Assembly (NCBI GenBank): GCA_951406725.2
Contig: OX597814.1
Location: forward strand, 185,938,001-186,002,000
Length of the DNA stretch: 64,000 bases
Direction of reading: 5' to 3'
From: Octopus vulgaris
Lineage: Eukaryota
Position numbers and translations under genes: made by a program. Position 1 is the stretch's first letter. The number at the start of each line of letters is the position of its first letter. The notes below the pieces were generated by a model. The model was not told where the DNA came from. It ran no database searches and saw only the letters and a list, made by a program, of their open reading frames with translations. This document shows positions 2,817 to 57,402 of the stretch, one piece after another.

Positions 2817-2890
2817 GGCAACAGCAATTGTAAATTAAAATCATTTTATTATATTTACAAAAGATTGCCGAAACTATGCATAGTCCAGGA
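2817..2890 (+). ncRNA. 5'-truncated hammerhead-like motif (stem II + GAAA + stem III + GUC)
   Basis: GGCAA...TTGCC long stem, then GAAAC-TATGCATA-GTC (palindromic stem III). The CUGAnGA half is replaced by the (TA)n tract. Confidence 0.5.
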
Positions 2891-3350
2891 AAGATTGGGT
2901 AAACGTTTTTATTTCTCTTTCCCTTTCAGAATTACAACTATTAGTGGTTTGGAGTTTAACTGCTCTTTCTAGTGAGTCAGATGTCCTATTATGGTCATCT
3001 CTTATGTGTTTAAATAGTTCTCCTAACGCCAAATCTGTTCATCAAATAGTAGTAATTGGCATTTAGTTGTGACAATGTTGTTTTCTACATAAATTCCTTA
3101 TATGGAATTCTGACATCCCCATTACCCCATTTCTATAATTAGAAAATCTTTATTGTCTCCTTTCATTAGTTCTTCCCTCTCAGAACTTTACAGTAGTCTG
3201 GAACAACTGAATCTTAGTCAGTCAGTTGATGGGCTCCACTACCTCAAATGTTCTTAAAATTTAAATCCACATCTTTGTCTATATATCTACCTTCTCTATA
3301 ATGTTGCCACTTGATATGAAAATTTTTGTATTAATGGAAAACTTCTATAA

Positions 3351-3436
3351 TTGGCTGATGAGTGCTCAGCATTTTAAAACTGCTGTAATACTTACAACAT
3401 TTAGTAAAATGATGTAGTACGAAACGATCATACCAA
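3351..3436 (+). ncRNA. Type I minimal hammerhead ribozyme-like motif (PLE type)
   Basis: TTGG-CTGATGA-GTGCT...AGTAC-GAAAC-GATC-ATA-CCAA: stem I, core, stem II and palindromic GATC loop are present. ATA could be CpG-decayed GTA. Confidence 0.75.
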
Positions 3437-3484
3437 ATTACCGGAGTCATTCTTGTTGCTTATTTTGATATATATATATATATA

Positions 3485-3858
3485 CACTACCGTCAGAAAT
3501 TAATTAGCACCCTTGATTTGCTCTTCACTCAAGGTATGTGCTGTCACCTAGTGGCCATATCTCAAATTATTGCTTTGTTGCGAGTTCACTGTTGCGCAGA
3601 ACGATGACGTAACTTTGTTTGCAGAGCAGTTTGAGAGTCTACAGCCTTATGATGTTGACATAGCAGTGCAACAAATTGGAGTGCGGATGCAGACAAATCT
3701 TCCTTTGTTTAATAGATATAGGTAGCGCCTCGCAAGGACCGAAATCACACCATACTAAGTTTTCTCATCGCGTAAGACGTTTTGAACAGCTCATAGGTTA
3801 ATTGATTTAACCTATTTAATGTAGAAATTTGAGAAGTGCTAATTAATTTCTGACGCAA

Positions 3859-3861
<3 letters not shown>
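3485..3861. mobile_element. Tc1/mariner-type MITE inserted in (TA)n
   Basis: About 26-bp TIRs CACTACCGTCAGAAATTAATTAGCAC / GTGCTAATTAATTTCTGACGCAAGTG, flanked by TA on both sides. Confidence 0.8.
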
Positions 3862-3896
<35 letters not shown>

Positions 3897-4641
3897 TCCT
3901 TCAAGGTAGTGTAACAAACATCAAATAGGAGAGCGGGTGAGGGTACATACGAGAGAATGCAAAAACTTGACCCAGATGGGATTTGGTGTGGAACAGTGCC
4001 AGAACAAATACTACAAGGCATTTAATCCAACTCTCTAATGACTGCCAATTTGATGCTGTAGTAGAAAAATGAATCAAAATACGCAAAATCATAGATTTTG
4101 AAATGCTGTACAATCAAAGAAGTAAAACAACTGATGGAAAAGGAATTAGACTCATTGACTTGCCTTTGAACTGTGAAAATTCTAGGACTGCAAATAAAAA
4201 TGGTAAATAAAAACTATAAGAGCTATGGGAACAATGCCAAAATGTCTGTTCATTAAAATAAGAGGCAATGGAATTAAAATTCAGATGAGTTGCACAACAA
4301 TGTCATTCTGAATTCTGAAAAAAAATCTTAACATAGTATTTGAGATTTGAGAAAAAAAAAAACATCAGCTAAATTTCAAGATATAACTGACCTGATCAAC
4401 ATTGCAGACAGCAATGATAATAATAATGGTTTCAAATTTTGCCACAGGGACAGCAGTTTTCAAGGAGAAGAATCAATTACATCGAAACCCCCACCCCCAT
4501 CCCACAGTAATCAACTGGTACTTATTTTATTGACCCCAAAAAGGTGAAGGGTAAAGTTGGAATTTGAACTCAGAATGTAGTGATGGGTGAAATACCGCTA
4601 AGCATTTTGCCTGGTGTGCTAACAATTCTGCCAACGCGTCA

Positions 4642-4676
4642 AAATAATAATAATAATAATGATGATGATGATGATT

Positions 4677-4716
<40 letters not shown>

Positions 4717-4757
4717 CGACGACGATGACGATGATGATGATGATGATGACGACAACG

Positions 4758-4821
<64 letters not shown>

Positions 4822-5096
4822 TAACAAAAATGGTTTTAAATTTTACCACAAGAGCAGCAATTTTGGGAGAGGCAATGAGTTGATTACATCGACCCCAGTG
4901 TTCAACTGGTACTTATTTTATTGACCCTGAAAGGAGGAAAGGTAAAATCAACCTTGACAGAATTCAAACTCAGAACAGTGTGCTAACGATTCTGCCAGCT
5001 CACAACAATAATGATAATAATAGTAATAACAATAATAATAACAACAATAATAATAAAAATAAAAATAATAATAACAATAATAATAATAAAAATTAA

Positions 5097-5134
<38 letters not shown>

Positions 5135-5185
5135 AAATAATAATAATAATATTAGCAGTAATAATAACAATAATCATAACAATAA
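4642..5185. repeat. (GAT)n/(AAT)n microsatellites interleaved with family B SINE fragments
   Basis: Direct reading of trinucleotide runs. Confidence 0.9.
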
Positions 5186-5998
5186 ATTAAATCAACCCCA
5201 GGACCTAATTAGTATTTTCATCAACCCCCTAAATGATGAAGAGGCAAATTTGTCTCCAGTAAGATTGAACTCAAAATCTACTGACCCTGTAACACATTTT
5301 TCGTTCTTCAGAACCAACAAGAGAACCTTTAGAAATAGCAGCTTAAAACCATACCTTATACTTCAATAAACTTAATGAAAGAGCACATAAGAATAATGTA
5401 GCCCTACGAGCCACTAAAAAGACAGGATGGTCGTTGATGGAAATCCTTTAATCATGGGTCTGCTTGCTAATCTACCCAAGAAACAAGAAAGTCAAATAAC
5501 AACCCAGAATCCAAATGTCTTTCTCTCTCTCTCACCCTCCCTCTCTCTCTCACCCTCTCCCTCTCTTTCTCTCCCTCTTTCTCTCTCCCTGTCTCTTTCC
5601 CATCACCCCTTGATAACTAGTGCCAGTGTGCTTATGTCCCTATGACTTAGTGGTTCAGCAAAAGAGACAAATAGTATAAGTGCCAGGTTCAAGTCATTCA
5701 AATAAAGTCTTCAAGGTAGTGCTCCAGCGTGGCCACAGTCTAATGACTGAAGAAAGAGAGAGAAAGAGAAAGAGAGAGAGAAAGAGAGAAGGAAAGAAAG
5801 AGAGAGAGCAGGAAAGAGAAACACACAAACATACATACATACGCACACACACACATACATACATACATACATACATACATACATACATACATACATACAT
5901 ACAAACATACGTACATACATGCATGCATGCATGCATGCATACATACATACATACATACATACACACAACATACATACATACATACATACATACATACA

Positions 5999-6033
<35 letters not shown>

Positions 6034-6579
6034 CCCTTTGTAGGGCTTATACATCTAATGTGTGTCAGATATAAGTGGCAGATAGAGAAAATTCTAAATA
6101 AAGACAGAACTTCACTGCAAAGGATCCTGCCTGATAGCCAATGAGCAGTCACAAACCAATAATGGCAGCATTCACTAGGGTACAGTGACCCAACAGATAG
6201 CACTGTTGCATCTATAAAAAGATGTAGAAACTCTATGATAATGCTGTGACAAGGTGAATGCAGATTGTCTTCAAAGAAACCTTGCTTCCATCCAGGTTAG
6301 ATAGAGGCAGCTCTTTCCGTCCAGCTGTCATGTTTTGATGTTTCACTTGATCAAAGGTGCAAGAGTTAAGAGGTTGTTTGTGCTTTCTTGGGAATATTTG
6401 GACGCTTAAAACAGGAGCAAAAGCATGATGCATAAAAAGAAATATCTTTTCAGCCACCGAGCCATGCTCCTTTGCAAAGTATATACAGTGTAAATACAGA
6501 GAACAATTACTGTAAAAGACAACACAAGGTTTGACAGATATGGTATTAGCTTAATGCTTTAATGGAATGAGAAAAGTGC

Positions 6580-6613
6580 CTTAATGTTTTGAACGTTAGT
6601 CCTTCATCAGAAG
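6580..6613 (-). ncRNA. Decayed minimal hammerhead-like motif
   Basis: Minus strand CTT-CTGATGA-AGGAC-TAAC-GTTC-AAAAC-ATT-AAG. Two CpG>CpA reversions give C-GAAAC-GTT-AAG. Confidence 0.5.
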
Positions 6614-7185
6614 AAAGAGAGAAGCAAAGAGGGTGTAAGAAAAAGGAAAAGTTAGTCAAAGAGGGAGAGAGAGAGAAAGAAGAAAATGGTATGTATTAGT
6701 GACAGAAGCAGTATTAATATAGAGAAGTAATATTTATCCCCACTTAAACATGGATGTTCTATTAGAACAAGCTATACTGTTGTAGATACAATGAGAGAAA
6801 TTCTTATATTGGCTTTTGATGCAAAATACACTCTTGTTTATATTGCCAGTAGGGAGATAAATTCCCACCATCTCCAGTGCTGAGACCACCAGATCATGTG
6901 ATTTCAACCTTCCTTGCTCTTGTCAATGATGGACACTCAACCACTAGAGATAGCAGCTACTCATCTCCCTGTCAGGAATATTTATAGAACAACAGTGTCA
7001 GAACAGGTGCTGGTGTCACGATTAGCCAGTGAGCTTGTTCAAAAGTATGTATTAGCAACAGAGGTAAACTATACTTCAGTATATACCATGAGAGAAACTC
7101 GTGTCTGGAAGTTGGTACAAGAGGGGAGTGATGCACATTTGTGGGTTTTTTTGAGAGGTGTAGGTTAGTGGGAATGTGACACATT

Positions 7186-7590
7186 CATCATCATCATCAT
7201 TGTTCGACCGAGGTCGAGACAATGGAATTTACCATGCTATGCCAGACCTCACGGTCCATCATAGTATTACGGAGGTCCTGTGGCTGGATGCCTGTACCCC
7301 TGGAGATTACATCAGGGTAGGAGAGTGTGCGCCCTCTGGTATTGCAAGCAGATGGCCTCCAGAGGAGAAGAGTAGAAATTGCCTCGTTTTCAACTCTACA
7401 ACAATGTCCAGCAAACTGCATTTTGGTTGAATGACGCTTCCACGAGAGATTTTGAGCCCTCATAAGGAGGCGAGTGTAGGTTCCATCTAACCGCCTCTCA
7501 AGCTTCTTTGATAACGTCCAGGTTTCTGAGCCATATAGTAGTACTGGCTCGACTGTGGCCCTGAAGATTTCAAGTTTGAAGTCTCTACCC
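7186..7590 (-). mobile_element. RTE-clade LINE 3' fragment
   Basis: ORF 7197-7682(-) contains KLEIFRATVEPVLLYGSETWTL...FAGHCCR, followed by a (TGA)n tail. Confidence 0.85.
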
Positions 7591-7811
7591 AGATTGGCAC
7601 ATTGGGTGGGGATGTAATCATTAAGTGAGAGGGAAGAGCAGGCACGAGAGTTAAGCGGGGTTTGCATTGTATTCTGCCTCACTGTGTGATACCTTGGGTA
7701 AATCTATTCTTCTATAGCTTCAGGTCAATTGTAGCCATGTGAGTGAGTTTTATAGCTGGAAAATCTGCCTCAGTGAATCTTGTCTGCCCCATGCAAGCAT
7801 GGAAAATGATG

Positions 7812-7907
<96 letters not shown>

Positions 7908-8290
7908 CACACACAAAGGGAAGAGAACTCAATACATATAGTTGAGTTTATTTATTTGTTCAAGGCTAATAATGAATCATTCTGAGCAGCAATGAAATGA
8001 ATCATCAACTCTAAATATGTATGTACGTATATATATTTGTATGTATGTATGTATGTATGTATGTATGTATGTATGTACGTACATATGTATGTGTGCATGT
8101 GTACTTACTTACATGCATACAGTGAGAGAGAAAGAGAAGTGAGAGAAATGCAAAGAAAAAATCTAGAGTCTAAAGAAACTAGCAATGGCTTGCATCATCA
8201 AAAAGCAGTAAATAAAATTTGTAAAACAGAGAAGTTTGTGTACCATGAGGGTAAGTTCTGACATTTTAGGCAGGGCCCTTCTTGTGTAAT

Positions 8291-8371
<81 letters not shown>

Positions 8372-8689: not shown

Positions 8690-8739
<50 letters not shown>

Positions 8740-8943: not shown

Positions 8944-8977
<34 letters not shown>

Positions 8978-12045: not shown

Positions 12046-12092
<47 letters not shown>

Positions 12093-12496
12093 GAAAAAAG
12101 GTTTGAAAATGCAATTTAAACGATGTTTATTTACTTAACCGGTTTCACTCTTTGGTAAAAGATTGTCAAAAGTTACATTTAAGGAAACATTGAATAATAT
12201 GGGTTCAAAAAGTTTTTTACATAATTGTCACATTGAATATTATGCATTCAAAAAAGTTGTTTACATAATTGTCACATTGGATATTATGGGTTCAAAAAAA
12301 GTTTTTTACATAATTGTCACATTGAATATTATGCATTCAAAAAAGTTTTTACATAATTGTCACATTGGATATTATGAATTCAAAAATGTTTTTTTATACA
12401 TAATTGTCACATTATTTGGGAAAATTTGGCAGAAAAGGATAAAACAAATATATTATTGGGAATTGGTTGCGTTAATTATTGGTTGTCGCAAAAAAA

Positions 12497-12781
12497 AATT
12501 TACTCTACGTCATAAGGTGTGAAGGATGCCACGAAGACTACATAGGGCAAACGAGCCTTACCCTCAGAGACAGAATGACAGTTCACCGACAACAACTGAG
12601 GGACCCCTCCACAAGACAGATACCACTAAGTGGACACTTAGACCTTTGTGCACACAATAAGTCCCCCAAATTCTTAGTCTTCCCACTATACCAATGCTCG
12701 GACAACACCACAGACCAAACACGAATAAATAAGGAAAGTAATCTTATTCAAAAATACAGACCACAACTAAACATACTCTAA
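12497..12781 (+). CDS. C-terminal GIY-YIG endonuclease fragment of a PLE (no true start)
   Basis: NLLYVIRCEGCHEDYIGQTSLTLRDRMTVH...H...E...I....P.LN matches the PLE GIY-YIG pattern with CCHH residues. Confidence 0.88.
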   Translation, partial: NLLYVIRCEGCHEDYIGQTSLTLRDRMTVHRQQLRDPSTRQIPLSGHLDLCAHNKSPKFLVFPLYQCSDNTTDQTRINKESNLIQKYRPQLNIL

Positions 12782-12929
12782 CATACCCCCTGGAAGCACA
12801 TCCAGAGCAAGCACACAGGGACGCGCGCACGCTCACAGCATATCGTGCGGGCGGGCACATGCGCGCATCGGCACGCATAGGACACACTAGCGGGCATTGA
12901 CCGCACACATACGTGGCATGCACACGCAT

Positions 12930-12966
12930 GCATTATATATATGTAGGTGATGTATGTGTGTGAGTG

Positions 12967-12998
<32 letters not shown>

Positions 12999-13171
12999 AC
13001 TGTGTGCGTGTGTGTGTATATGTGTGTGTGCGCGCGTTGTATGTGTGTGTGTGTGTGCACGTGTGTATATATGTGTGTGTGTGTGTGCACTGTGTGCGGG
13101 TGTGTGTGTATGTGTGTGTGTGTGTGTGAGCATTGTGTACGTGTGTATGTATTTACATATGTATCTGTTTT

Positions 13172-13208
<37 letters not shown>

Positions 13209-14000
13209 TGTGTGTGTATATGCATGGTATGTGTGTATATGTTAGTACTTTGTTTGTGTGTATGTGCGGCATGTAGAGATATATTTGAGTGTGTACGCTA
13301 TAGGTTTGTAATTTGTGTGTGTGGGGGGTGGGGAATTTTTTATATATATATATGTGTGTGAAAAAATATATGTATGTGCATGTATGTATGTATGTATGTG
13401 TGTATATATATATATATGTGTATATATATGTGTGTGTGTGTATGTGTGTGTGTGTATATTTATTTGCATGTTTATGTGTGTATAAACATGTACATTATTT
13501 GCATGCGCATTGTGTATATGTATATTGTATGTATGTGTATTGTATATGTACGTGTACAATTAAGTGTATATATTTGTGTGTATGTGTGCACTGTATATAT
13601 GTATATTGTAGGTGTGCTATATGTGCATGAATACATGTATATGCATTGCGTGTATATATATGTATGCATTGTGTGTGTATGTATGTTATGTGTGTGTGTG
13701 TGTATATATATATTATATGTATGCGTATGTGTATGTGTATGCATTGTATGTATGTGTGTTGTGTGTATATGTGGTACATCTATGTATGTGTATGTAAACA
13801 CTATTTATATGTATATGTGTATATATGTATATGCATTGTCTATATATATATATATTATATGTATGTATTACGTATGTATATTGCATGCATATATTGTGTA
13901 TATATATTACTTACATGCTGTATGTGTGTATTGTATGTGTGTATATATATGCTAGGTGTATTTGTGTGATATTTATATTATGTATGTATGTGTGCGTGTG

Positions 14001-14033
<33 letters not shown>

Positions 14034-14255
14034 GTGTGTATGTGTGTTATATATCTGTGTATGTTATATATAGATACATGTTATATTTGTGTGCTGTGTG
14101 TATATGTGATATATGTGGGTGCGTTGTGTGTGGGTGTGTGTGTTCTGTGTGTGTGTGTGTTGTTTGTATGTGGTGTGTGTTTGTATACTATGTGTGTGTG
14201 TGTGTGTGTGTGTTGTTGTGTGTGTGTGTGTTTGTGTGTATATATATGTGTGTGA
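12930..14255. repeat. 1.3-kb degenerate (TG)/(TA) low-complexity tract inside the PLE 3' region
   Basis: Direct reading. Confidence 0.9.
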
Positions 14256-14766
14256 CAAACAGACGCTGTCTGACCAGCAGGCACGGACACATCTATTCAC
14301 ACCCGCATACTAACCTCCTGATAACCCCAAAATCATTCATGCATAAAGGGGAAGTATACACCACATTGGCTACTTCTTCTGTTCTCTCAGTTCAGCCTTT
14401 CTGCTAATACTGACAGGTCAGTAAAAACATACTTAAAATATTCTGAGATGTACAAAAAAGCCATTTTAATTTTTGCTGTCAAAACGCTGTATATATATAC
14501 CAAAGATTGTATATATATACATGTAATGTGACAATTTGCGACAACCAATAATTAACGCAACCAATTCCCAATAATATATTTGTTTTATCCTTTTCTGCCA
14601 AATTTTCCCAAATAATGTGACAATTATGTATAAAAAAACATTTTTGAATTCATAATATCCAATGTGACAATTATGTAAAAAACTTTTTTGAATGCATAAT
14701 ATTCAATGTGACAATTATGTAAAAAACTTTTTTGAACCCATATTATTCAATGTTTCCTTAAATGTA

Positions 14767-14807
14767 ACTTTTGACAATCTTTTACCAAAGAGTGAAACCG
14801 GTTAAGT
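14767..14807 (+). ncRNA. Variant or decayed minimal HHR in the pLTR (mirror copy 12133-12173, - strand)
   Basis: ACTT-TTGACAA-TCTTT-TACC-AAAGA-GT-GAAACCGGTT-AAGT. Core differs from CTGACGA at two positions. Confidence 0.5.
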
Positions 14808-14885
14808 AAATAAACATCGTTTAAATTGCATTTTCAAACCTTTTTTCTTATATAATCCCACTGTGCGATACCCCACAACTCAACT

Positions 14886-21065: not shown

Positions 21066-21272
21066 TAATCCAAACAAGAAAGCACAAAAAAACACAACAA
21101 CGCAAGGATGGACGTGGAACAAATGTAGTATTATTGGATGCTCAGGAAAGAAGGAAAGAAGGAGGGTTTAACATTTTGAGCGGAGCTCTTCGTCGGAAAC
21201 ATAGGAGAAGGAAAGATCCAGAGAAGGGAAGACAGAGGAAAAAAAAATCGACAACGGTACGCATGAGGTCAC

Positions 21273-21308
<36 letters not shown>

Positions 21309-21319
21309 GTATGTATATA

Positions 21320-21605
21320 TGGCCACTGGTGGTGGTGTTACACACCATACTAATCATATCTGTTGGGCATGTGGAAAAGAGTGTAATTCGGCAGGAGGAC
21401 TTAAACGACATGCAAAGGTACATGAAGCCCAGTTACAACTACAGCCGGCTATTACCGGTAAAGGTATTAGTTGCCAATTCTGTACAAGACGTCGTAGATT
21501 TTTAGCTGGGCTAAAAAGTCACATTCGATCACAGCACCAGTAACAGTTAAGCTTCGTGCAATGGCCATACTCAATAACGAGGGGGCAGCCATAATAATAA
21601 TAATA
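21320..21605 (+). mobile_element. RTE-like LINE 3' end encoding two C2H2-like zinc fingers
   Basis: HICWACGKECNSAGGLKRHAKVH and CQFCTRRRRFLAGLKSHIRSQH, then a stop, the tail GGCCATACTCAATAACGAGGGGGCAGCC and (ATA)n. The same tail occurs at about 57990-58032. Confidence 0.7.
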
Positions 21606-24938: not shown

Positions 24939-24991
<53 letters not shown>

Positions 24992-25174
24992 AAATATTAG
25001 GGAATAAATCCAAATTTACAAGGAAAAATCAGATTTAAGATTGAATCCAATTTTATAGTAAAATATTATATTATATCAAATTAGAGACAAAACCACTATT
25101 ATGCAAATCAAACAAAGAAAGACTTAAGCCAATACATAAAATAATTTATATAAATTAAAATTTAACATATGAAT

Positions 25175-25226
25175 AACCACTACGATCGTTTCGTGTCAGC
25201 ACATCTTAGACATTCTTCAGGTGGTT
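25175..25226 (-). ncRNA. Type I minimal hammerhead ribozyme
   Basis: Minus strand AACCAC-CTGAAGA-ATGTC...GACAC-GAAAC-GATC-GTA-GTGGTT: 6-bp stem I, intact core, palindromic loop III, GUA cleavage triplet. Confidence 0.82.
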
Positions 25227-25289
25227 TCAAAACCTTCTTAGCGAGTTTTAAATTAGTTCATAATTTAAAACTCGCTAAGAAGGTTTTGA

Positions 25290-25341
25290 AACCACCTGAA
25301 GAATGTCTAAGATGTGCTGACACGAAACAATCGTAGTGGTT
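25290..25341 (+). ncRNA. Type I minimal hammerhead ribozyme (mirror copy; loop III GATC>AATC)
   Basis: AACCAC-CTGAAGA-ATGTC...GACAC-GAAAC-AATC-GTA-GTGGTT. Confidence 0.78.
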
Positions 25342-25565
25342 ATTCATATGTTAAATTTTAATTTATATAAATTATTTTATGTATTGGCTTAAGTCTTTCT
25401 TTGTTTTATTTACATAATAGTGGTTTTGTCTCTAATTTGATATAATATATATATATATATATATATAAATTTATATATGAGGATAATATCGATATTTAAG
25501 TGTCGAAATTATCAAGTGGCCAGCATGAAAGAAATACCTTACAAAGGTTAAAAAAAAATTTTAAC

Positions 25566-25753
25566 AATTAAAAATGAGGGTGTCTAAAAGACACCAACAT
25601 GTCGAAATAGCAGTCAAAACACTGACTATAGTACCACGTTAAATGTTCATATCGCACCATGGTGCGATATGAACATTTAACGTGGTACTATAGTCAGTGT
25701 TTCGACTGCTATTTCAGCATGTTGGTGTCTTTTAGACACCCTCATTTTTAATT
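25566..25753. repeat. 188-bp loopless palindrome
   Basis: 94-bp arms centred on CACCA|TGGTG (25659/25660), about 3 mismatches, (TA)n on the right. Confidence 0.92.
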
Positions 25754-26007: not shown

Positions 26008-28137
26008 TTTACCGATAATGGTTCTTTTAACATACCGAACTACTTGGTAAAATTATTAATTATTAATTGATTAATTAATTTTACCCTTTATTATTATTGA
26101 TTATATATATATATATACACACACACATAAGATTAATATGTATACATATTTATATATTTTAATCTTAGTGTAAATATAAAACAAAGGATCTATTGAAAAG
26201 ACTCAAATTAAATAGCACTTGATGACTCACTTCTGTTGCTCAATCATCCGGGTTTGCATCAACACTTCGATTAAATATTTATTATGTCTAAAAATTAATT
26301 TCCTTGTTTGCTACATTGTGTAGTATATAATTATTATCATTGGAAATATCCTGTGAAGCAAACATCTGACATTCTGTAATGAAATTTTAAATGATGGTTA
26401 GTTTAATACAATTAAACAGTGGTTCCCATATTAACTAACACATTAACAAATATCATACACCTTGTTATTCTCTTCATACACGGAAAAAAAATAAAGGAGA
26501 TTGCCCTGATATATTTCACAATTTGTTAGTCACTCAAAAGAAGACAAGTATTCCGTTAACCTTCTACCTGCAAAACAGAAGTTACAATAAATTGTTGTTT
26601 AAATCAAACACAAGCCAGAACTTAGATGTAAAGATTAAACTATTTAAGATACTGTATGTTTATTGCATCCTTCAAAACTTCCATGCATCCTGAGATTCGC
26701 CAACACTACACCTGATTTTCTCCCCTCCATACACACGCAAGCATGTATCTGACTGATGCACTGTTCACTTCCCAGACATTTGTACATTACTGCATATGCT
26801 TTATATGCACTTTTGACAAGTTGTGGTGCACCTGAGCACTGTATACAATAATTTCATTATTATTATAATTAGTTAATTAATAAATATTTACGTACAACAC
26901 ACCATGCATTAGAAGCCCAAGATAATTCATAGTTAAACTATAGTTTGTTATGCTGCTTTCACTATGAAACTTAGAACAGATGTAAATACACCAGTATTCA
27001 ACTATTTAAAATTGATCTCGGGTTTCTGATATACAGATATTTATTAACTAAAATCAATTATGTTACAACTTGTGACCATCATCTCACAAAGAGTACTAAA
27101 CTTCAGGGTACTATAATTTCCCCATGTACTACTTGGTGTAGTATCTAATTATTATCATTGGATATAATAATATCCAATGATATTATGGAAAGAGTACTAA
27201 ATTCAAAGTTATTCATCCATATTGCAATGTACATAAATTTTGATATTGTATGTTAGAGTAAAGACCCCCTTCGGTCAAGAATGATTATGAGATTGCACCT
27301 AGAAAGTTACCCTCTGAGGCATAAATCCGGGTACCGTTGTTTTGTAGAAAACCAACAGTTTCCCATGCATACCAGCCTCCCTTCTCCATACCACCGATGA
27401 CATCCAAGGGAAAGCCAAAGGCCGATACAGTTTGACTCTCGGAGTGGTTGGTGTTAGGAAGGGCATCCAGCTGTAGAAACTCTGCCAGATCAGATTGGAG
27501 TCTGGTTTGCCAGCCCTCAGTCAAATCGTCCAACCCATGCTAGCATGGAAAGCGGACGTTAAATGATGATGATGATGATGATGATGTTGCAACTCATTTT
27601 TACAGGTGAGTGAACTGGAGCAATATAAAATAAAGTGCCTTGCTCAAGAACGCAACACACAGCCCAGTCTGAGAATTGAACTCACTACCTCATGATTGTG
27701 AGCCCAATGCTCTAACCACTAAGCAATGCACCTTCACTTATTGTACTTTAACATCATTTAAAAACAAAATAGTGTATCACCAATTTTTTTTTTTTTCCTA
27801 TTCAGCATATTTCAACATTCATTAGTTTAATGTCTACTTTTCCTTGCTCATTGTAGATCAGACAGAATCTGTTGAGGCAGATTTTCTAAGGTCTGATGCC
27901 CTTCTTCTTACCAACCTTTACCTCCTTCCAAATAAGATAATATTTCCTCATGATCAGACATGCTTTAGAGAAGACTGGAAACAAAGGATACTGCTTGCAT
28001 GATGATGATACTCATTTACAACTATCATACAATGTCAAGACAATGAGACTAACACACATGCACACTCATATACTCACAAATACATACATATATGTACATA
28101 TTCAGATAGAAACTGAAAGAAACCTTCATATTAAAAA

Positions 28138-28404: not shown

Positions 28405-28879
28405 CACACACATATATATATAAGGTAACAAACTAAGGAAAGAAATTCCTTCAAAGGGGTATGTAAAACATCCACTTCACTGGTACATTAGTTGAATACC
28501 ACATAGATATGGGTATAATGCAAATTACAAACAAATTGTGCTGGTGGCATGTAAAAAGCACCCACTACACTCTCGGAGTCACTGGCATTAAGAAGGGCAT
28601 CCAACCGTAGATACACTGCCAGATCAAAATCTTATATTTGATATTAATTGATTGAAGGAGAGGTTTTCTTCTAGCTGCTCATCCATAATACCCAAGCTTA
28701 TGCAGATATGTAACACATGTTCTTGGACTAACTTCTAGCTGACTAACTTCTAGCCTTCAAACGGGGTTTGAAGTGAAGGCAGCATGTTCATTGTCTATCT
28801 CCTTAACTTCTTGGAGATTTTAGGTAAAATTATACTAATGTGTCCATCTGTTTTAATTTAATTAAATTCTATGTCTTTG

Positions 28880-28965
28880 TGCAGCTGAGGATTGCTCTGC
28901 ATTTAAATTGATGTAATGGTTGCATTGTTCAATTAAATGGAGTTGTGTGAAACGATCATACTGCA
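28880..28965 (+). ncRNA. Type I minimal hammerhead-like motif
   Basis: TGCAG-CTGAGGA-TTGC...GTGT-GAAAC-GATC-ATA-CTGCA. Downstream tail CTTGTTGCTTATTTTGATAT is shared with the 3351 copy. Confidence 0.7.
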
Positions 28966-29295
28966 TTACCTCTGGATATCCTTGTTGCTTATTTTGATAT
29001 TTATATATATATGTATATATACACACACATACAACAGTTAATAGTTTATATGGAAAAAGACAGCATGCTGGCAGAATCATTAGCATGCCAGATGAAATGA
29101 TTAAAAGTATTTCACCCATCTTCATGTTCTGAGTTCAAATTCTGCTGAGGTTGACATTGCCTTTCATCCTCTTGGAGTTGATAAAATAAGCACCAGTTGA
29201 GCCCTTCCTGTTATCAACCCTCTTTGACTAGATATATTTACTCAGAAGATTGGAAATGAAGGGCACCACTTCTATGATGGTGGCAATTGCTTTAG

Positions 29296-36130: not shown

Positions 36131-37450
36131 CATCATCATCGTTTAACACCCATTTTCCATGCTGGCATGGGTTGGACAGTTTGACTGTCTTAATTCATAT
36201 GTAACACATGGCCATACCAGCACAGTCACCTCTCTTGCACACCACATTTGATGCTCCTTATGCCCAACTTTTCTGGCAGGGCGCTTACATTCTCTATGCA
36301 CACTGACATTACACATCCAATGGATCATATTAGCTTCATTTCTTTCAAGCCTACACATGTCCTCAGCATTCATGGCCCATGTTTCACTACCGTATAGAAA
36401 GGTAGTTCGCATGCATGCATCATACAGACTACCTTTGACCCTGAGTGAGAGGCCTTTAGTTACCAGCAGAGGTCGGAGCTCCCTGAACTTTGCCCAGGCT
36501 ATTCTTACTCTAGTTGCTACACTCTCAGAGCAACTGCCCCCCACTACAGACTTGGTCACCTTGATAGCAGAAGCTATTAACTACTTGTAGTTTTTCTCCC
36601 TGGCATGTGATGGAATCTGTTTTCTGTACATCTTCAGTGTTTATTGTCCCAGTGCATCTGCCACACACAAAAACTATTTTCCCGGTTAACCTTCCTTTGA
36701 TATTGCTGCACCTCTTATGTGTCCATAGCTTACACTGGGTACAACATATGGAGTTTCTACCCATACCTTTTCTACAGATTAAGCAGGGTCATCTACCTGA
36801 AGGGGCTTGTGATTTGACACCCTTCCTAATTACTAAAACTTTGGTTTAGGCTAGGTTAACCCTAAGGCCCTTCAATTCTATACCTTGCTTCCACACCCAA
36901 AACTTCATCTCCAGTTCTGGCAGTGACTCGGCTATTAGAGCAAAGTAATCAGCATAGAGGAACTCCCAGGGGCAACCTGTCTTGAATTCCTCTGTTAATG
37001 CCTGGAGGACTATAATGAATAAGAGGGTGGCTGAGGACTGAACATTGGTGAATCTGCTTCTATTCAGAATTCTTCAGTATACTCATTGCCAACACTCACA
37101 CTACTGACAGCTTCCCTGTACAGAGCTTGTACAGATCTTACCAGCCACTCATCTATCCCCAGTTTCTGCACTGACCACCCTGTCAAAGGCTTTCTCCAAG
37201 TCAACAAAAGCCAAGTACAAAGGTTTATCTTTGGCTAGGTATTTCTCCTGCAGTTTCCTTACTAGAAATATAGCATCAGTGGTGCTTGTACCTGGCACAA
37301 AACCAAACTGTGTCTCATCTAGGCTAACTCTCTCCCTAATTAGTTGGGCTATGACCCTCTCTGTAACTTTCACCACCTGATCCAATAATTTGATACCCCT
37401 GTTGTTATTTCTATCCAAAGCATCACCTTTCCCCTTGTAGCAGTTGATAT
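36131..37450 (-). pseudogene. RTE-clade LINE relic (RT, PHD-like Cys cluster, C-terminus)
   Basis: YKGKGDALDRNNNRGIKLL...QFGFVPGTSTTDAIF...AFVDLEKAFDRV; CCTQCKLWTHKRC...CGRC; RVRIAWAKFREL...LYGSETW. Frameshifted. Confidence 0.92.
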
Positions 37451-37507
37451 CTATTTCTAGCATGCAAGGGGTCCACTTAGTGGTCTCTCCTATTGTTCAT
37501 ACATATG

Positions 37508-38450: not shown

Positions 38451-39381
38451 ACAAAGATACTATTACATTCAACATTACAACAACAACAATTTCAGTTATA
38501 GAAACAGTATGTCTTTGAAACATAGGTGCAAGAGTGGCTGTGTGGTAAGTAGCTCGCTTACGTACCAAGTGGTTCCGGGTTCAGTCCCACTGCATGGCAC
38601 CTTGGGCAAGTGTCTTCTACTATAGCCTTGGGCTGACCAAAGCTTTGTGAGTGGATTTGGTAGATGGAAACTGAAAGAAGCCTGTCATATATATGAATAT
38701 ATATATATATATATGTATGTATGTGTGTGTATGTAAATGTTTCTGTATCTGTGTTTGTCCCCACAACATTGCTTGACAACTGATGCTGGTGTGTTTACGT
38801 CCCCGTAACTTAGTGAAGCGGCAAAAGAGACCGATAGAATAAGTACTGGGCTTACAAAGAATAAGTCCTGGGTGCAATTAGCTTAACTAAAGGCAGTGCT
38901 CCAGCATGGCCACAGCTTGCCAACTGAAATCATTTTGATATCAAAAATGGTATTTCCAATTTGTATGTGTGTGGGTGTGTGTGTGTGTGTGTGCATGCTT
39001 TGGTATATATATATATGTGTGTGTATGTTTGCACTTTTAAATTACCCATTATGGAAACTCTTCTTCAAAGGAGAAGATTATTGAAGGAACAAAAAAGAAG
39101 GCAGCAATCAAGCTTATCTCCAGAACAATTAGAAATAAGAAGAGAAATAAAAAGACAAAGACATTCCAGTGTCTCACAAAAAAAGAACAAATACAATTAG
39201 GAAAACAATTAAAAAATGCAATTAAAAATAAGTCAGCTACAAAATATCAAAATGAAACAGAAGGTATGAGATCTAATAATGAAGGTAATTCTTAGAGAAC
39301 AACCATTAGAGAGATATCAAAATGAAACAGAGAAAGAAAGAAATTTAAGGAGGCCAAATATGAGAAAAACATCATAAAAAT

Positions 39382-39602
39382 AATTGCAGTGTGGAAGGCG
39401 TTTATAAGCCTTTTGTCGGTGAACAGGTTGCGATCTCAAAGCAACGAAAATATTTTGACAAATTAAATTTAAATGTTGAAGTGAATCTAACGATTTTGTG
39501 TGTTTCTTAAATGGCTTATAAACACCTTCCACGCTGCAATTGTTTTTTTTCCAGCACACGATCTCAAATCAGGTCACTTGCTATGCAAGTACATCTCCGT
39601 AA
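39382..39602 (+). mobile_element. Fold-back pLTR-like element with HHR-like motif at 39412-39462
   Basis: A short inverted arm at 39382-39410 mirrors about 39513-39541. Motif TTTGTCG-GTGAACA-G-GTTGC...GCAAC-GAAA-ATAT-TT-TGACAAA. Confidence 0.7.
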
Positions 39603-41013: not shown

Positions 41014-41219
41014 CATATACTATTGTGTCTGGGGGGGAGTCATTTTCTTCTTGTGCCTTATAATTTAATGTGTTCACCGGTAAGATTTCCACTTATTCCT
41101 TATTTTCATTTTCCTAAAATTTTCCTAAAAATAAGGAATAAGTGGAAATTTTACCGGTGAGTGTGTTAAATTATAAGGCACAAAAAGAAAATGACTCTCC
41201 CCAGACACAACAGAATATG
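41014..41219. repeat. ~206-bp fold-back (about 92-bp arms)
   Basis: TTGTGTCTGGGG...CACCGGTAAGATTTCCACTTATTCCTTATTTT / AAAATAAGGAATAAGTGGAAATTTTACCGGTG...CCCCAGACACAA. Confidence 0.88.
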
Positions 41220-41744: not shown

Positions 41745-41822
41745 AGCTTACAGTTGTTTCTGCTATATGATGCAGTGGGCTCTTAGAGTGCCTGAATAAT
41801 ATCCTATAGCCACATCAGTGCC
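41745..41822 (-). ncRNA. Decayed hammerhead-like motif
   Basis: Minus strand GGCA-CTGATGT-GGCTATA...TATAGCA-GAAAC-AACT-GTA-AGCT. Confidence 0.5.
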
Positions 41823-46675: not shown

Positions 46676-47030
46676 ATTGCCTTTTCGCAGCTTCTAATGC
46701 TGGAGATGTACTACAGGTCAGCTGTTCGCTACCAGGGAATTAAGGCAACACCCCTTATTTTTCGAGCACCTTCTGGAGTATTCAAGTGGTTCCAAGCAGT
46801 GCTCTACCCTTATTGCAGCTCCTATTTGTCCCATGTACTTCTCAAGATTTTTATTCAGTGTTCCCAGAGCTCTGACAATTATTGGTACTACTACCACCTT
46901 TTTCATCAACCACAACTGCTTCACTTCCCAAGCTAACCTGTCATATCTATCGACTTTTCTTTCTTCCTTATCACATATTTTGTTGTCAGCTGGGCATGCT
47001 ATATCTATGATCCAGCATAGTTTGCACAGA
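46676..47030 (-). mobile_element. R4-like LINE 3' fragment (restriction-like endonuclease domain)
   Basis: Minus strand CWIIDIACPADNKICDKEERKVDRYDRLAWEVKQLWLMKKVVVVPIIVRALG, followed by a 3' UTR and (AAT)n. Confidence 0.8.
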
Positions 47031-47624
47031 ATATAAAGAAATTATTTCTTTTCTAAGCACAGATATGGCTGTTTTGTTTAAGACGCTTGCTTACCAACTA
47101 AGTGGTTCCAAATTCAGTCCCACTGGAAAAGCATCTTCTATAACCCCAAGCCAACCAGAGCTGTGAGTAGATTTGATAGAAGGAAACTTAAAATCCATTG
47201 TATGTATATATAGAGACATATAGATATACATACATACATACATACATATATATAAACTTACTTGGAAATGGATGTATCAATTAAATAATAAGTAATGAAT
47301 AATATATTGTGTGTTTGTGTGTGTCATTTTTTTGTTTCCAACTTTGACCCTCCGTAAATCCAAAATTTTAATTTTATTTTAGAATTCATGGGAGCAACTG
47401 TTTTTGAAGACCCAAATTGTCATTGAATGCTCGAAATGAGGAGTAGATAGACAGCCAACAACTGATGAAGGGTCCTTTCTCTGTGTTAACTTGTCCTGTT
47501 TTCCTTCTTTTTTTTTTAATTGCTTATGTATTTCACTCATTTTTCCTTCATTTGATTAGGTATTTCATGGTTATTTGCACCGTTGGTGATGTCCTGTACC
47601 CATACACTCATGTGTATATATGTA

Positions 47625-49758: not shown

Positions 49759-49789
<31 letters not shown>

Positions 49790-49935: not shown

Positions 49936-50008
<73 letters not shown>

Positions 50009-52323: not shown

Positions 52324-52603
52324 GTGCTTTTTACGTGCCACCTGCACAGGTGCCAGACAGAGCTGGCAAACGGCCATGAACAGATGGTGCTTTTACGTGT
52401 CACCGGCACGGGGGCTAGGCGAGGCTGGCAACGGGCACGAACGGATGGTGCTTTTACATGCCACCGACACGGGGGCCAGACAGGGCTGGCAAACGGCCAC
52501 GAACAGATGGTGCTTTTACGTGTCACCGGCACGGGGGCCAGGCGAGGCTGGCAACGGACATGAACGGATGGTGCTTTTACATGTCGCCGACATGGGGGCC
52601 AGA
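52324..52603. repeat. Internal ~60-bp tandem array within a family C element
   Basis: GGTGCTTTTAC.TG.CACC...GGCTGGCAA.CGG.CA.GAAC.GAT repeated about 4.5 times in alternating variants. Confidence 0.85.
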
Positions 52604-53217
52604 CATATATATATATATATATATATAAAATATTTATACTGTGAAATTTGATTTAATACTAAATCTAATTTTTTCCTGTAAGTTTGGAGCCATACTCCCT
52701 AATATTATTTTTATTATATATATATATATATATATATATGTGGCAGGCTTCTTTTGGTTTACATCTACCAAATCCACTCAAAAGAGTTAGTTGACTCTGG
52801 ATCATAGTAGAAGGTGCTTGCCCAAGATTCCATGCACTGGGACTGAACCCGGAACCATGTGGCTGAGAGCAAACTTCTCTTACCATGCATCCATACCAGC
52901 ACCTACAGGATGCATTGGATAACACAGTTCTAATTACACTATATCAGATAAAAAAAAATTATAGAATGGTGATGGTTGGAATGCTTTTCATAATATGATT
53001 GCTCCAGCAAGGCCAACCAGGGGCAAAGCAACAATAACAGGCCTATTTGCAAAACACAAACAAGTGGTGGAGGTGTGACAAGTGGGAAGAAAGGAAGACA
53101 AAAAAACACAATTGGATTATAAATTCAACCACTATTGAATGCAATTAGTACATTAAACTCTTAACAACTTCCAACACCTCCCCCACCAGCACCACAATAA
53201 CAATAAGCACTACAAAT

Positions 53218-53248
<31 letters not shown>

Positions 53249-53406
53249 CTAACACAACCACCACTAGCAACATCAGACTTCTTCCATTGCCCTCATTTCA
53301 TACCTTGCTCTTCTCACACTTCAACAGTTAGAATAGAAAGAGTCAATTATTCCGGATCAGCCTCCAGCTACAACATAAAAGCATTAACAACAACAACAAC
53401 AACAAC

Positions 53407-53456
<50 letters not shown>

Positions 53457-53847
53457 TAATAATAATGGCCGACAGTAAGTAACCAACAGGTTCAGGGATG
53501 TTTTCATGGTAAAAAGAAAAAAGGGATTTGCCAAGGGATTAGCTGCCAGAGAAAGAACAGGTTAAAAAGAAATGAAAAAAAACAAAAACAAGACCTTTGT
53601 ATTGATTTATAAATTGCTTACTGCTCCTTACTTCTGTTTTCTCCACTGCCAGCCACACTTTCATCCCCTACTGACACCCACTCCCTCAGCATTAATATGT
53701 CACGTGCCATATGCATTGATGTATAAACTGGCAATAATCCATTGTCAGCTATCACCAACATATTCATATATGTATATGCTTGTCATCACACACAAACACA
53801 ATATATACATATATATATATATATATATTGTGTGTGTGATGACAAGC

Positions 53848-53884
<37 letters not shown>

Positions 53885-53900
<16 letters not shown>

Positions 53901-53911
53901 TAGATAGATAA

Positions 53912-53995
<84 letters not shown>

Positions 53996-54089
53996 TTAGA
54001 TAGACAGACAGATAGATATAGATATACTTGGAAGAGGATGCAAGGTGTTCAATCATATAATAATATAAATAAATATAAATATATTATAT

Positions 54090-54188
<99 letters not shown>

Positions 54189-54215
54189 AAGATATAGATA
54201 TATATATAGATATAG

Positions 54216-54270
<55 letters not shown>
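53885..54270. repeat. (AGAT)n and (TA)n microsatellites
   Basis: Direct reading. Confidence 0.9.
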
Positions 54271-54273
<3 letters not shown>

Positions 54274-54999
54274 TGTAAACAGAGTTAGTGGTTATAATAA
54301 CCAACTAAGGGATAAAATATCCGTATATACTATTGGTATCTGTTACCCATGTTATCCCTGGGCATTGGTGAGCAGGTACTCTGCATGTAGAGTGCAGGTA
54401 ACAACAGAATAAACAAGAGTTTATCAGGAAACAAATACAAATAATACTAGATAGTATTCCCTAGATCACTACTAGCTCACTTTTTTACCTACAGATCTTG
54501 TAGCCCCTAGATGGTAGATTATATGCTTTTAACATATTGGGTTTCTTAGACTTTTTCCTAGGCCATGTTTTCTTTCCTTTTCCTTGTATCCTTTGTTTAT
54601 TTTGTATACTCTTGTTTTTTACTCTGCCGAAGCTCTGTGCCTTAATTTGAATATCCTATGAAAATGAAGAACTTTATTCTTGCATTTTGGCAACAGATTG
54701 GAAAAGACCGTAAGATATATTTCATCACCTATTTGCTATGTCATGCTTTGTATTTAAAAAATAAGCTATAAATTCAGTCAAATTGATGTGTTTGTTAATA
54801 TGAGATTTTCCTGTTGTTAAATGCTCAAAATACAAGAGTTAGAAAAACAGCCAACAACTGATGAAGGATCGTTCTTTATGTTGTTTGTCTTGTTTTCCTT
54901 TTGTGTCTTTCATTGTTCGAAAAAATAGTTCATAGTCCATGTACTCATACTTAGTATTTTTCTTGTTGTACACGTTTCATGATGTCCTGTGTCCACATA

Positions 55000-55030
<31 letters not shown>

Positions 55031-55122
55031 CTATACAATATGTTACATTACTCGGTAGTCAAGATAAAACTCTGAGTTTCAGATGCCGAAGTGGAAATCC
55101 ACAACACCATCTCTTAAATTAG

Positions 55123-56760
55123 ATAAAAAAAATAGAAACCCTCCCCCAAAAAGAGGCCTTTATTACTATTAAAGATCACAAAGAAAACTTCCTTTCCAAC
55201 CCTAAATGTAGGCTTATCAACCCAGCCAAGTCAGAACTAGGGATTATTAGCAAAGAAATTTTAGATAAAATAAATTCGAAAATTAAGACCGATACTAGGC
55301 TAGTGCAATGGTCCAATAGTATAGAAGTCGTAGACTGGTTTAAAGCTATTAAGAATAAGAAAAAAGCGAGGTTTACACAATTCGATATTGTTGATTTTTA
55401 TGCCTCTATCTCTAAAGAACTGCTAGATAAAGCCCTAATCTTCGCTAGTGACTTCATAGAAATTAGTACCAATGATAAGGATATAATCTTCCATGCTAGA
55501 AAGACATTACTTTTCAGTGAGAATGCAAAGTGGGTAAAAAACACCGACACGGAGGGCGCTTTCGATGTGAGCATGGGTTCATATGATGGGGCAGGCATCT
55601 GTGATCTAATTGGACTCTTTCTCCTAGATACCTTCGGTAAGACATTCCCTAACGTACATTTCGCCATCTACAAAGATGATGCCCTCGCCTTAACAGCTAA
55701 TACAAATGGACCAGCACAAGATCGTTTTAGGAAGGATATTATCCAGTTAATGAAACACTTCGGACTTAGTATAACTATAGACACTAACCTGACGGTTGTC
55801 AATTTCTTAGACGTTTCCTTAGATCTTAATAATAATATTTATAAGCCTTATAGGAAGCCCAATGATAGACTAAGTTATATTAATGTAGGTTCATGCCATC
55901 CCCCTATAGTATTCAAAAATTTAGTTAAAAATATTAGTAAGAGGATTTCTAGCCTCTCATCTAATGAGGACATCTTCAATAGCGTTGCCCCAGTTTATAA
56001 TAAAGCTTTAAAAGATAGTGGTTTTAGCGAAAAAATAAAATATACACCTATCACCAGCCCAACAGTAAGGAAAAGGAATAATAGAAATAGGAAGGTCATC
56101 TGGTTTACGCCCCCTTACTCACCCGAGGTGGCCTTCAATATAGGTAAATATTTCCTAGCACTGATAGATAGACATTTTCCAGTTAACCATGCTTATAGGA
56201 AACTCTTCAATAGACACAATTTAAAAATTAGTTTTAGTTCAACTACCAATTTTAAAAACATAATCAATCATAACATACAAAAAACACAAGAAGAAAACAG
56301 CTGTTCATGCAGGAATAAAGAATTGTGCCCGCTAAATGGAGCTTGCATGTCCAAGACCATCATATATGAAGCTACCGTAAACTCTATAACCACTAAAGAC
56401 ACCGTTTCAACGAAGAAATACGTGGGCCTGACAGAGGGTAATTTCAAGGCCAGGTTCAATAACCACACTTTGAGCTTTAGGCACTGGAACAAAAGAAAAG
56501 CGACACAATTATCCAATCATATTTGGTCTTTAAGAGATAAAGGTGTCGATTATAACATACAATGGAAGATTTTGGCCAGATGTAAGCCCTACACTAACGG
56601 CAGCGGAAGGTGCGGTTTATGCGACATGGAGAGATGGCTTATCTGGAAAAGCAGCTTAGACCCTACCACATGTCTAAATACAAGGACAGAGCTTTTCGGA
56701 TCATGCCCACATGTGACTAAATTTCTGTTACGTTTTTGGTCCCCTAAAGAAAACGGATAG
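55123..56760 (+). CDS. PLE reverse transcriptase + C-terminal GIY-YIG-like endonuclease (frame open from 55123; N-terminus missing)
   Basis: AFITIKDHKENF..NPKCRLINPAKSELG; QFDIVDFY; SMGSYDGA; IYKDDAL; VNFLDV; CSCRNKELC; IIYEA...YVGLTEGNFKARFNNH; RCGLC. Confidence 0.93.
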   Translation: MKKIETLPQKEAFITIKDHKENFLSNPKCRLINPAKSELGIISKEILDKINSKIKTDTRLVQWSNSIEVVDWFKAIKNKKKARFTQFDIVDFYASISKELLDKALIFASDFIEISTNDKDIIFHARKTLLFSENAKWVKNTDTEGAFDVSMGSYDGAGICDLIGLFLLDTFGKTFPNVHFAIYKDDALALTANTNGPAQDRFRKDIIQLMKHFGLSITIDTNLTVVNFLDVSLDLNNNIYKPYRKPNDRLSYINVGSCHPPIVFKNLVKNISKRISSLSSNEDIFNSVAPVYNKALKDSGFSEKIKYTPITSPTVRKRNNRNRKVIWFTPPYSPEVAFNIGKYFLALIDRHFPVNHAYRKLFNRHNLKISFSSTTNFKNIINHNIQKTQEENSCSCRNKELCPLNGACMSKTIIYEATVNSITTKDTVSTKKYVGLTEGNFKARFNNHTLSFRHWNKRKATQLSNHIWSLRDKGVDYNIQWKILARCKPYTNGSGRCGLCDMERWLIWKSSLDPTTCLNTRTELFGSCPHVTKFLLRFWSPKENG

Positions 56761-56944
56761 AACATGCTTTCTGTGTTATGTCCCAAGAAGATTTTATATA
56801 TTTTTATATATTTTTATGCATTTTTATATAATTTTTATGACGAAAAATGCGAGCGATGTATAAGTACGCAGGCAAAGCAGAGTTATAACAGAGTAATTTC
56901 CCTTCATTTTTAACGGTATTTTTTCATAACGTTTTCAAATAGCC

Positions 56945-57007
56945 AGATAACCGAAGAGATGGTGTTGTGGATTTCCACTTCGGCATCTGAAACTCAGAGT
57001 TTTATCT
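56945..57007 (+). ncRNA. Hammerhead-like motif in the PLE 3' pLTR (CCGAAGA core variant)
   Basis: AGATAA-CCGAAGA-GATG...CATC-T-GAAAC-TCAGA-GTT-TTATCT: 6-bp stem I and an extended stem II (GTGG/CCAC). Confidence 0.72.
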
Positions 57008-57103
57008 TGACTACCGAGTAATGTAACATATTGTATAGATAAATTTCCTCTATTTACATAATATTGAGGTCTCTTTCTTTCTTTTGTTATCTTACCGTTT
57101 TAT

Positions 57104-57175
<72 letters not shown>

Positions 57176-57234
57176 ATATGTGTGTGTGTGTGTGTATGTA
57201 TAGATGTAAGTATGTACATGTACGTATGTATATA

Positions 57235-57279
<45 letters not shown>

Positions 57280-57283
<4 letters not shown>

Positions 57284-57402
57284 ATATGTACAATTACTCA
57301 ATAGTCAAGATAAAACTCTGAGTTTCAGATGCCAAAGTGGAAATCCACAACACCATCTCTTCGGTTATCTGGCCATCTGAAAAAACGCTATTAAAAAATA
57401 CC
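57280..57402 (-). mobile_element. Additional inverted pLTR copy with a complete HHR-like motif (57308-57370)
   Basis: Reverse complement of about 56915-57032 with a few substitutions. Between (TA)n tracts. Confidence 0.85.

Follow-up and report, generated by a model that had tools for sequence, protein, structure and literature searches.

Hammerhead-bearing fold-backs at an Octopus vulgaris locus include apparently intron-less leader copies of Penelope-like elements

It is an open question how the spliceosomal introns of Penelope-like elements (PLEs) persist when the element passes through RNA. An antisense template has been favoured, an unspliced sense template was not excluded, and data separating the two were asked for (Arkhipova, 2013; PMC3846280). 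In Penelope of Drosophila virilis the start site lies in the pseudo-long terminal repeat (pLTR), followed by a short first exon and by an intron of 75 bp that ends just 5' of the hammerhead ribozyme and is retained in genomic copies, full-length ones included (PMC2377424, PMC4209133). Endonuclease-bearing (EN+) PLEs of the Hydra clade, less than 3 kb long, combine a C-terminal GIY-YIG domain and CxCx5C, DKT, CxxC and CxH motifs with a pLTR hammerhead, a (TA)n setting, an inverted truncated arm and a one-sided tail of 30-40 nucleotides (nt) (PMC8557442). Poseidon PAc of the green anole uses two reverse transcriptase (RT) start sites, which bracket the tail near the junction of pLTR and open reading frame (ORF), and nicks both strands at AT-rich DNA; its hammerhead is dispensable for insertion in vitro (PMC11167929). 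Metazoan non-LTR (LTR, long terminal repeat) retrozymes are ORF-less, AT-rich units arranged head to tail (PMC7229834, bioRxiv 10.64898/2026.07.22.740005), with one type I hammerhead per unit, co-existing with PLEs (PMC7229834). We analysed a stretch of 64,000 nt from Octopus vulgaris (contig OX597814.1, positions 185,938,001 to 186,002,000), hereafter the window, which has a GC content of 35% and many microsatellites, together with its relatives in the genome (2.8 Gb in 227 contigs). A preliminary description had seen there a system of ORF-less hammerhead hairpins beside coding PLEs, and had taken the hairpins for extreme truncations or for a retrozyme-like class. We trace the ORF-less pieces to three sources: random 5' truncation, a retrozyme-like unit of 481 nt in tandem and, by a route that had not been foreseen, spliced leaders. 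The hairpin of the family called A here is, with good probability, a double intron-less copy of a PLE leader, likely reverse-transcribed from spliced messenger RNA (mRNA), while the other pieces are truncations or stubs of tandem units.

The A hairpin, at 25067-25449, is without an intron of 1.1-1.3 kb with GT-AG borders that is found in long copies of its family. These copies carry an exon of about 30 nt, a GTAAGT donor, a TG-rich intron (1314 nt in locus L032, 1231 nt in L035, 1132 nt in L057) and a TTTTAG acceptor directly 5' of the hammerhead; both arms of the window hairpin display the exact join of exon 1 to the hammerhead exon. Genome-wide, exact junctions number 199 spliced versus 79 unspliced in family A, and 500 versus 438 in a sister family, A', which has a different exon 1 and introns of 1845 nt (L459) and 1818 nt (L463). 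Reversed-pattern controls gave no match in either family. When 30 A' loci were taken without bias, 16 proved spliced, 7 unspliced and 7 neither. The upstream limit of the spliced form is fixed: none of 30 A loci and none of 16 A' loci has sequence upstream of a site that we take, by its resemblance to an initiator consensus, to be initiator-like, and the start site is placed by this very limit of the copies. Full-length elements run in the order initiator-like site, exon of about 25-30 nt, GT-AG intron of 1.1-1.8 kb, hammerhead exon, short end, tail and ORF. Among 30 ORF-bearing loci the leader hammerhead is present in 13 and the acceptor is reached in 12, all 12 of them unspliced. Finally, head-to-head pairs, counted in a part of the genome (A' on two contigs, A on eight), are spliced in both arms in 36 cases out of 63 and unspliced in both in the remaining 27, with no mixed pair, where about 30 would be expected were the arms independent. 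The spliced copies thus unite exact GT-AG intron loss with a 5' limit at the inferred start site, as processed retrocopies do.

This leader resembles that of D. virilis Penelope in having a putative start site within the pLTR, a short first exon and an intron whose end lies immediately 5' of the hammerhead, as well as in keeping the intron in full-length copies. It differs in that the intron is longer, and in that spliced genomic copies equal or exceed the unspliced ones. From Hydra-clade PLEs (PMC8557442) it is set apart by the length of the leader intron, 1.1-1.8 kb, and by its richness in microsatellites. Abundant intron-less copies find no mention in the accessible text of PMC8557442 and, within the literature that we could search, neither they nor PLE hammerheads of octopus have been described, although Repbase, Dfam or the supplements of Craig 2021 may hold such copies. 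Two loci, L032 of family A and L033, lie 373 kb apart on contig C1 and are identical over 1.8 kb, being either a segmental or an assembly duplicate.

Could simpler events have made the same pieces? Random 5' truncation of autonomous PLEs with their usual inverted arm is documented (PMC8557442, PMC4209133), goes with copy-specific junctions and fits families B, B2, C and D. That it should have produced all the ORF-less pieces is very unlikely, since a copy that is merely cut short could not have exon 1 fused to the hammerhead exon with an intron of 1.1-1.8 kb gone from between them, nor does truncation account for an upstream limit passed by none of 46 copies or for head-to-tail units of 481 nt. 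As a complete account, it is refuted by the counts of spliced junctions.

Several points weigh against reading the A hairpin as a copy of spliced RNA. The splice sites of A share four repeated bases, and a microhomology deletion could there give the same join. The exact A subfamily of the window yielded no full-length ORF; the full-length units belong to A', with a leader about 81-83% identical to that of A, and A-like arms of 86-89% identity border ORF fragments. Nor is the route shared by all families: 30 loci of family D yielded no spliced form, and neither did family B, where 5' ends spread over 3015-3319. In family E the ends of 26 of 30 copies (L288-L317) cluster to within about 7 nt of a single position, and no exon 1 was found in the long copies inspected by eye. 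Splicing, start site, capping and cleavage are all inferred from DNA, which moreover does not distinguish, as the template, the leader of an ORF mRNA from a transcript driven by the promoter of a downstream pLTR. An extra G at the 5' end, of the kind that a cap would leave, is unambiguous in 2 of 30 A loci, the rest being confounded by microhomology, and is not claimed here. As an aside, the stop point of family E has the look of an initiator as well as of a 3' splice site.

The four-base repeat lends itself to another account, in which a DNA deletion, or one old loss of the intron in a master element, was followed by the spread of a short non-autonomous form. The copies are many, and internal promoters can transcribe short elements. 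We hold this to be unlikely. The splice sites of A' have no such repeat and its join is exactly GT-AG, which leaves a microhomology deletion unable to account for the two families together; the spliced form, furthermore, ends where transcription would start. In a tree of 27 spliced and 17 unspliced rows (44 of 50 loci, 6 skipped; 156 columns) the two forms are interleaved, sharing subfamily variants, and a single clade of spliced copies is rejected by the approximately unbiased test (p-AU 2.6e-5); 13 changes of state are required, compared with 13.6 when labels are shuffled. Against the copying of spliced RNA it must be said that this tree is weakly supported, with one starred branch and a bootstrap that has not settled.

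How spliced RNA might yield such hairpins can be outlined from published in vitro work (PMC11167929), which supplies the nicking and two-start steps. The PLE protein would nick both target strands and begin reverse transcription at two internal RNA sites, and the two complementary DNAs would be joined where they stop, leaving a copy-specific head-to-head junction. The element promoter would give rise to a spliced RNA with both RT start sites within about 300 nt of its 5' end; copying it would produce an intron-less leader of 200-290 nt, usually twice, head to head. An unspliced precursor, longer than the unit, would give the long or full-length copies that keep the intron. Both arms would be read from one RNA, or from one RNA class. 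The start sites would bracket the tail near the pLTR-ORF junction as in Poseidon PAc, there inside the ORF, here upstream of the ATG; neither an intron nor a spliced product is reported in the accessible text on that element (PMC11167929). We lean towards two pools of sense RNA, spliced mRNA feeding short leader hairpins only and the unspliced precursor every ORF-bearing copy, with the arms of a pair taken from the same RNA. If the splicing is real, these hundreds of spliced copies, precise, bounded by the start site, never mixed within a pair and absent from ORF-bearing leaders, can derive from sense RNA alone. Such short leader copies (minis, for brevity) are likely dead-end by-products, made repeatedly by each subfamily; neither the intron nor the promoter region upstream is present in them.

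The inverted-repeat setting noted in the preliminary description is confirmed for families A (arms of 189 nt), C, D and E. Eighty A loci held 30 distinct two-armed insertions, and their junctions differ in all 30. A long (tailed) end is paired with a short (untailed) one in 30/30 two-armed insertions of A, 5/6 of D and 10/11 of E. The two ends point outward, for the most part into (TA)n. The claimed enrichment in (TA)n holds as well: a (TA)4 run lies within 30 nt past the 3' end in 28/29 ends of A, 30/30 of D and 15/26 of E (with 1 of the 30 loci of A and 4 of the 30 of E giving no end), as against 5.0% in the window and 7.0% (240/3420) in distal flanks. Fold-backs are thus ordinary head-to-head PLE insertions. 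The tailed unit with its inverted arm is already published (PMC8557442), and schistosomes have hammerheads on opposite strands 100-700 bp apart (PMC4209133). The architecture fits a start of reverse transcription at two internal sites together with nicking of each strand, as described for Poseidon PAc (PMC11167929).

This bears on the idea that the fold-back hairpin propagates itself in the manner of a retrozyme, by means of working ribozymes. Hairpins are frequent, as the A insertions illustrate, and the genome does contain genuine tandem hammerhead units without an ORF (family I, below). A self-propagating family should have had fixed junctions; none was seen, and the copy-specific junctions show that the hairpin is not such a unit. 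The minis have no clade of their own either, and on both counts fail as a self-propagating family. The A hairpin is predicted to fold as one near-perfect duplex (-285 kcal/mol) that would bury the ribozyme. In a test where one arm per insertion was chosen for spanning the cut site, none of 60 arm 5' ends in family A falls exactly there and 3 fall within 5 nt. Minis occur as head-to-head pairs or single arms, not head to tail, apart from one local duplication (L099), and they are not retrozymes. Of the three alternatives weighed here we give the self-propagating hairpin the least credence. It had further been proposed that these pieces seed the genome with self-cleaving and double-stranded-RNA-forming modules. 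The second half stands, as far as structure prediction goes. The first is doubtful, because the predicted duplex would bury the ribozyme of A and several window copies are damaged, and also because a read-through transcript holds one sense copy where a dimer is reportedly needed. In vitro, self-cleavage of PLE hammerheads is low (PMC4209133).

The other ORF-less pieces justify both halves of the earlier alternative. Copies of family D reach from about 100 nt to more than 1.5 kb upstream and those of C are likewise variable; the pieces of B, of its relative B2, of C and of D are variable 5' truncations. Family I, by contrast with these, is a head-to-tail unit of 481-486 nt with one type I hammerhead and without an ORF: same-strand hammerheads recur at a distance of 481-482 nt in 6 of 20 loci, as many as four units follow one another, and the genome has 121 exact read-through junctions and 229 exact hammerhead matches. 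Its stub at 25468-25753, beside the A hairpin, had not been listed in the preliminary description. None of 21 loci matched a PLE protein, the longest stop-free frame being 105 amino acids. The units nevertheless bear the marks of PLE integration, short and long ends, an inverted arm and (TA)n. Family I is a retrozyme-like unit. Family F shows a spacing of 487 nt in L378, and 3 of its 15 loci have the long-end motif upstream of the ribozyme; it is probably an ORF-less, partially tandem unit of about 487 nt, with PLE protein matches nearby in 4 of 15 loci. Units of I and probably F are likely mobilised in trans. They share with metazoan non-LTR retrozymes the ORF-less, AT-rich, head-to-tail organisation, at 481-487 nt against the 150-450 bp quoted for the latter (PMC7229834, bioRxiv 10.64898/2026.07.22.740005).

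About ten hammerhead-like motifs from several families had been announced in the window. We scanned it with a type I descriptor (core positions 3 and 8 paired, stems I and II of at least 4 bp each, stem III near-palindromic) and with 40 block-wise dinucleotide shuffles as the chance control. The window gave 9 matches, as compared with 0.05 +/- 0.22 per shuffle (maximum 1), and 8 of the 9 are sites named earlier (Table 1). Of twelve positions so named, 12133, 14767, 25175, 25290, 39412, 56945 and 57308 have complete motifs. Others do not hold up as well. At 2817, the truncation of a family F copy runs through the catalytic core, removing CUGANGA; at 6580 lies an old family G copy, 80-86% identical to 14 fetched relatives, whose GAAA box is altered; and 28880 does not satisfy the descriptor, though its family B2, like the family B of 3351, has an intact motif. 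As for 41745 (family H), the hammerhead was rejected: CUGANGA and GAAA boxes occur in 0 of 15 aligned members, and this is a plain long hairpin. In the Rfam scan, whose list is microsatellite noise, the best 150 of 200 matches include no hammerhead. The ninth descriptor match, at 28015 on the minus strand, has an A3-U8 core and a long stem II region and may be due to chance.

The stem sequences are wholly unlike from one family to the next while still paired; pairing is demanded by the descriptor itself, so that the shuffles are what controls for chance. The tiny palindromic stem III also recurs from family to family, the window copies of B (3351) and B2 (28880) being substituted there (GATCATA, where most family members have GATCGTA). 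Core pair 3-8 is C-G, U-A (family D), G-C (E) or U-G (I), the U3-A8 variant having been reported before (PMC4209133), and family C has C in place of U at core position 4 (56951, 57364). Covariation within families is uninformative, stems being nearly invariant, with paired changes only in stem I between B and B2. Most of the motifs are real minimal type I hammerheads of PLEs, self-cleavage being putative. Genome-wide, family A gives 258 exact 26-mer matches, and D and E give 1657 and 2018 exact matches; candidates number 1897 for B, 2972 for B2, 9 for C, 2270 for F, 236 for G and 1297 for H. In passing, C at core position 4 was also met in at least 4 other motif types in the flanks of fetched loci, and the flanks of 427 scanned loci contain dozens of further hammerhead families. 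CTGATGA cores at 47462, 54858, 42416, 42590 and 24604 have an incomplete downstream motif; the first two have flanks in common and look like one old family.

Two coding partners had been recognised, and both are there: a 5'-truncated ORF of 545 amino acids with RT and GIY-YIG in family C (55123-56760), and in family D a GIY-YIG tail only (12493-12781). Pfam places GIY-YIG above its cut-off for D and below it for C. Full-length A' elements have a single ORF of 838-841 amino acids with RT and GIY-YIG, and family D has an open frame of 876 amino acids in L149. The C and A' proteins are 40% identical over the RT and share a CxCx5C linker, a C-terminal GIY-YIG, and CxxC and CxH near the C-terminus; DKT was seen in A' only, C being truncated at that part, and no CCHH was seen in either protein when judged by eye. 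At residue 41, A' reads RIKW, compared with the literal RWK motif of the Hydra clade. Its unit has the pLTR, the inverted 5'-truncated arm and the one-sided tail, at about 6 kb and with a tail of about 80-90 nt, both larger than in that clade (PMC8557442). Family D has GxKF, DKG, a CX2-5CxxC linker and a GIY-YIG with internal CxxC, as well as hammerhead and (TA)n, in common with Neptune-type PLEs (PMC8557442); it differs from them by a TG-rich 3' untranslated region (UTR) of about 2 kb. By these motifs, on which the clade names rest, A' and C are Hydra-like and D is Neptune-like. Family D is very young (40 of 40 best matches are 100% identical over 386 nt) and, with its TG/TA-rich 3' UTR, spreads microsatellite-like DNA. 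The GIY-YIG end of the family E ORF was noticed in L466.

Table 1. Hammerhead-associated and neighbouring features of the window, numbered from its first nucleotide (match: descriptor satisfied)
Feature	Coordinates	Strand	Core	Details
Family F stub	2817..3014	+		hammerhead remnant without CUGANGA core; terminates at the family's short end
Family B pLTR end, 5'-truncated	3015..3470	+	3355 (match)	one stem III substitution; (TA)n at end
Family G, old decayed repeat	6500..6640	-	6610 (hammerhead-like)	GAAA box altered
Family D inverted arm	12089..12492	-	12169 (match)	U3-A8 core; short end in (TA)n
Family D main arm	12493..14885	+	14771 (match)	GIY-YIG tail 12493-12781; ~2 kb TG-rich 3' UTR; long (tailed) end within (TA)n
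Family A hairpin, long (tailed) end arm	24978..25260	-	25220 (match)	intact core; spliced junction 25234/25233
Family A hairpin, short-end arm	25255..25449	+	25296 (match)	begins at initiator-like site; 25282 is the last position of exon 1; spliced junction 25282/25283
Family I hairpin stub	25468..25753	long-end arm -, short-end arm +		truncated 3' of its hammerhead
Family B2 end, 5'-truncated	28769..28998	+	28885	substitutions in stems II and III; (TA)n end
Family E fold-back	39378..39602	+	39419 (match)	inverted short arm 39378-39410; main arm with G3-C8 core and long end; bounded by 14-nt target duplication, not in (TA)n
Family H hairpin in old repeat	41745..41812	+		not a hammerhead; outside the system
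Family C insertion	55030..57106	+	56951 (match)	inverted short arm 55030-55116; truncated ORF 55123-56760; C at core position 4; long end; (TA)n at both ends
Separate family C fragment	57279..57405	-	57364 (match)	89.5% identical; between TA runs

The window has further repeats. The family H hairpin is long, conserved across its repeat and has an internal loop. An inverted repeat at 59777-60892, with arms of 292 nt that are 95% complementary, surrounds an insert resembling a short interspersed element (SINE). There are two more hairpins, at 41032-41202 and 53772-53853; the former recurs in the flanks of L060 and L234 and may be akin to miniature inverted-repeat transposable elements. Fragments resembling the RT of long interspersed elements, together with one C2H2 zinc-finger fragment, lie at 7197-7703, 36143-37496, 46718-47041 and 21205-21543; Pfam recognises RVT_1 at 37152-37496, the other RT-like fragments being without a Pfam match. 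Repeat families D17-D20 of the window are abundant and SINE-like, often adjoining TA runs.

The system first described is, then, mostly known biology. That these are PLEs, that they have minimal hammerheads and an inverted 5' arm and that they target (TA)n had been rightly recognised, all of these being published features, and minimal hammerheads, fold-backs and TA targeting are ordinary. The spliced-leader class, undescribed in the literature that we could search, bears on the open mechanistic question. Family I matters in a different way, as its direct integration marks link a retrozyme-like unit to the PLE machinery. If the spliced leaders are what they appear to be, leader hairpins would be a genomic record of PLE start and splice sites, and no antisense template would be needed for PLE introns to outlast retrotransposition. 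The spliced copies open the question of the template to tests in the in vitro system already described.

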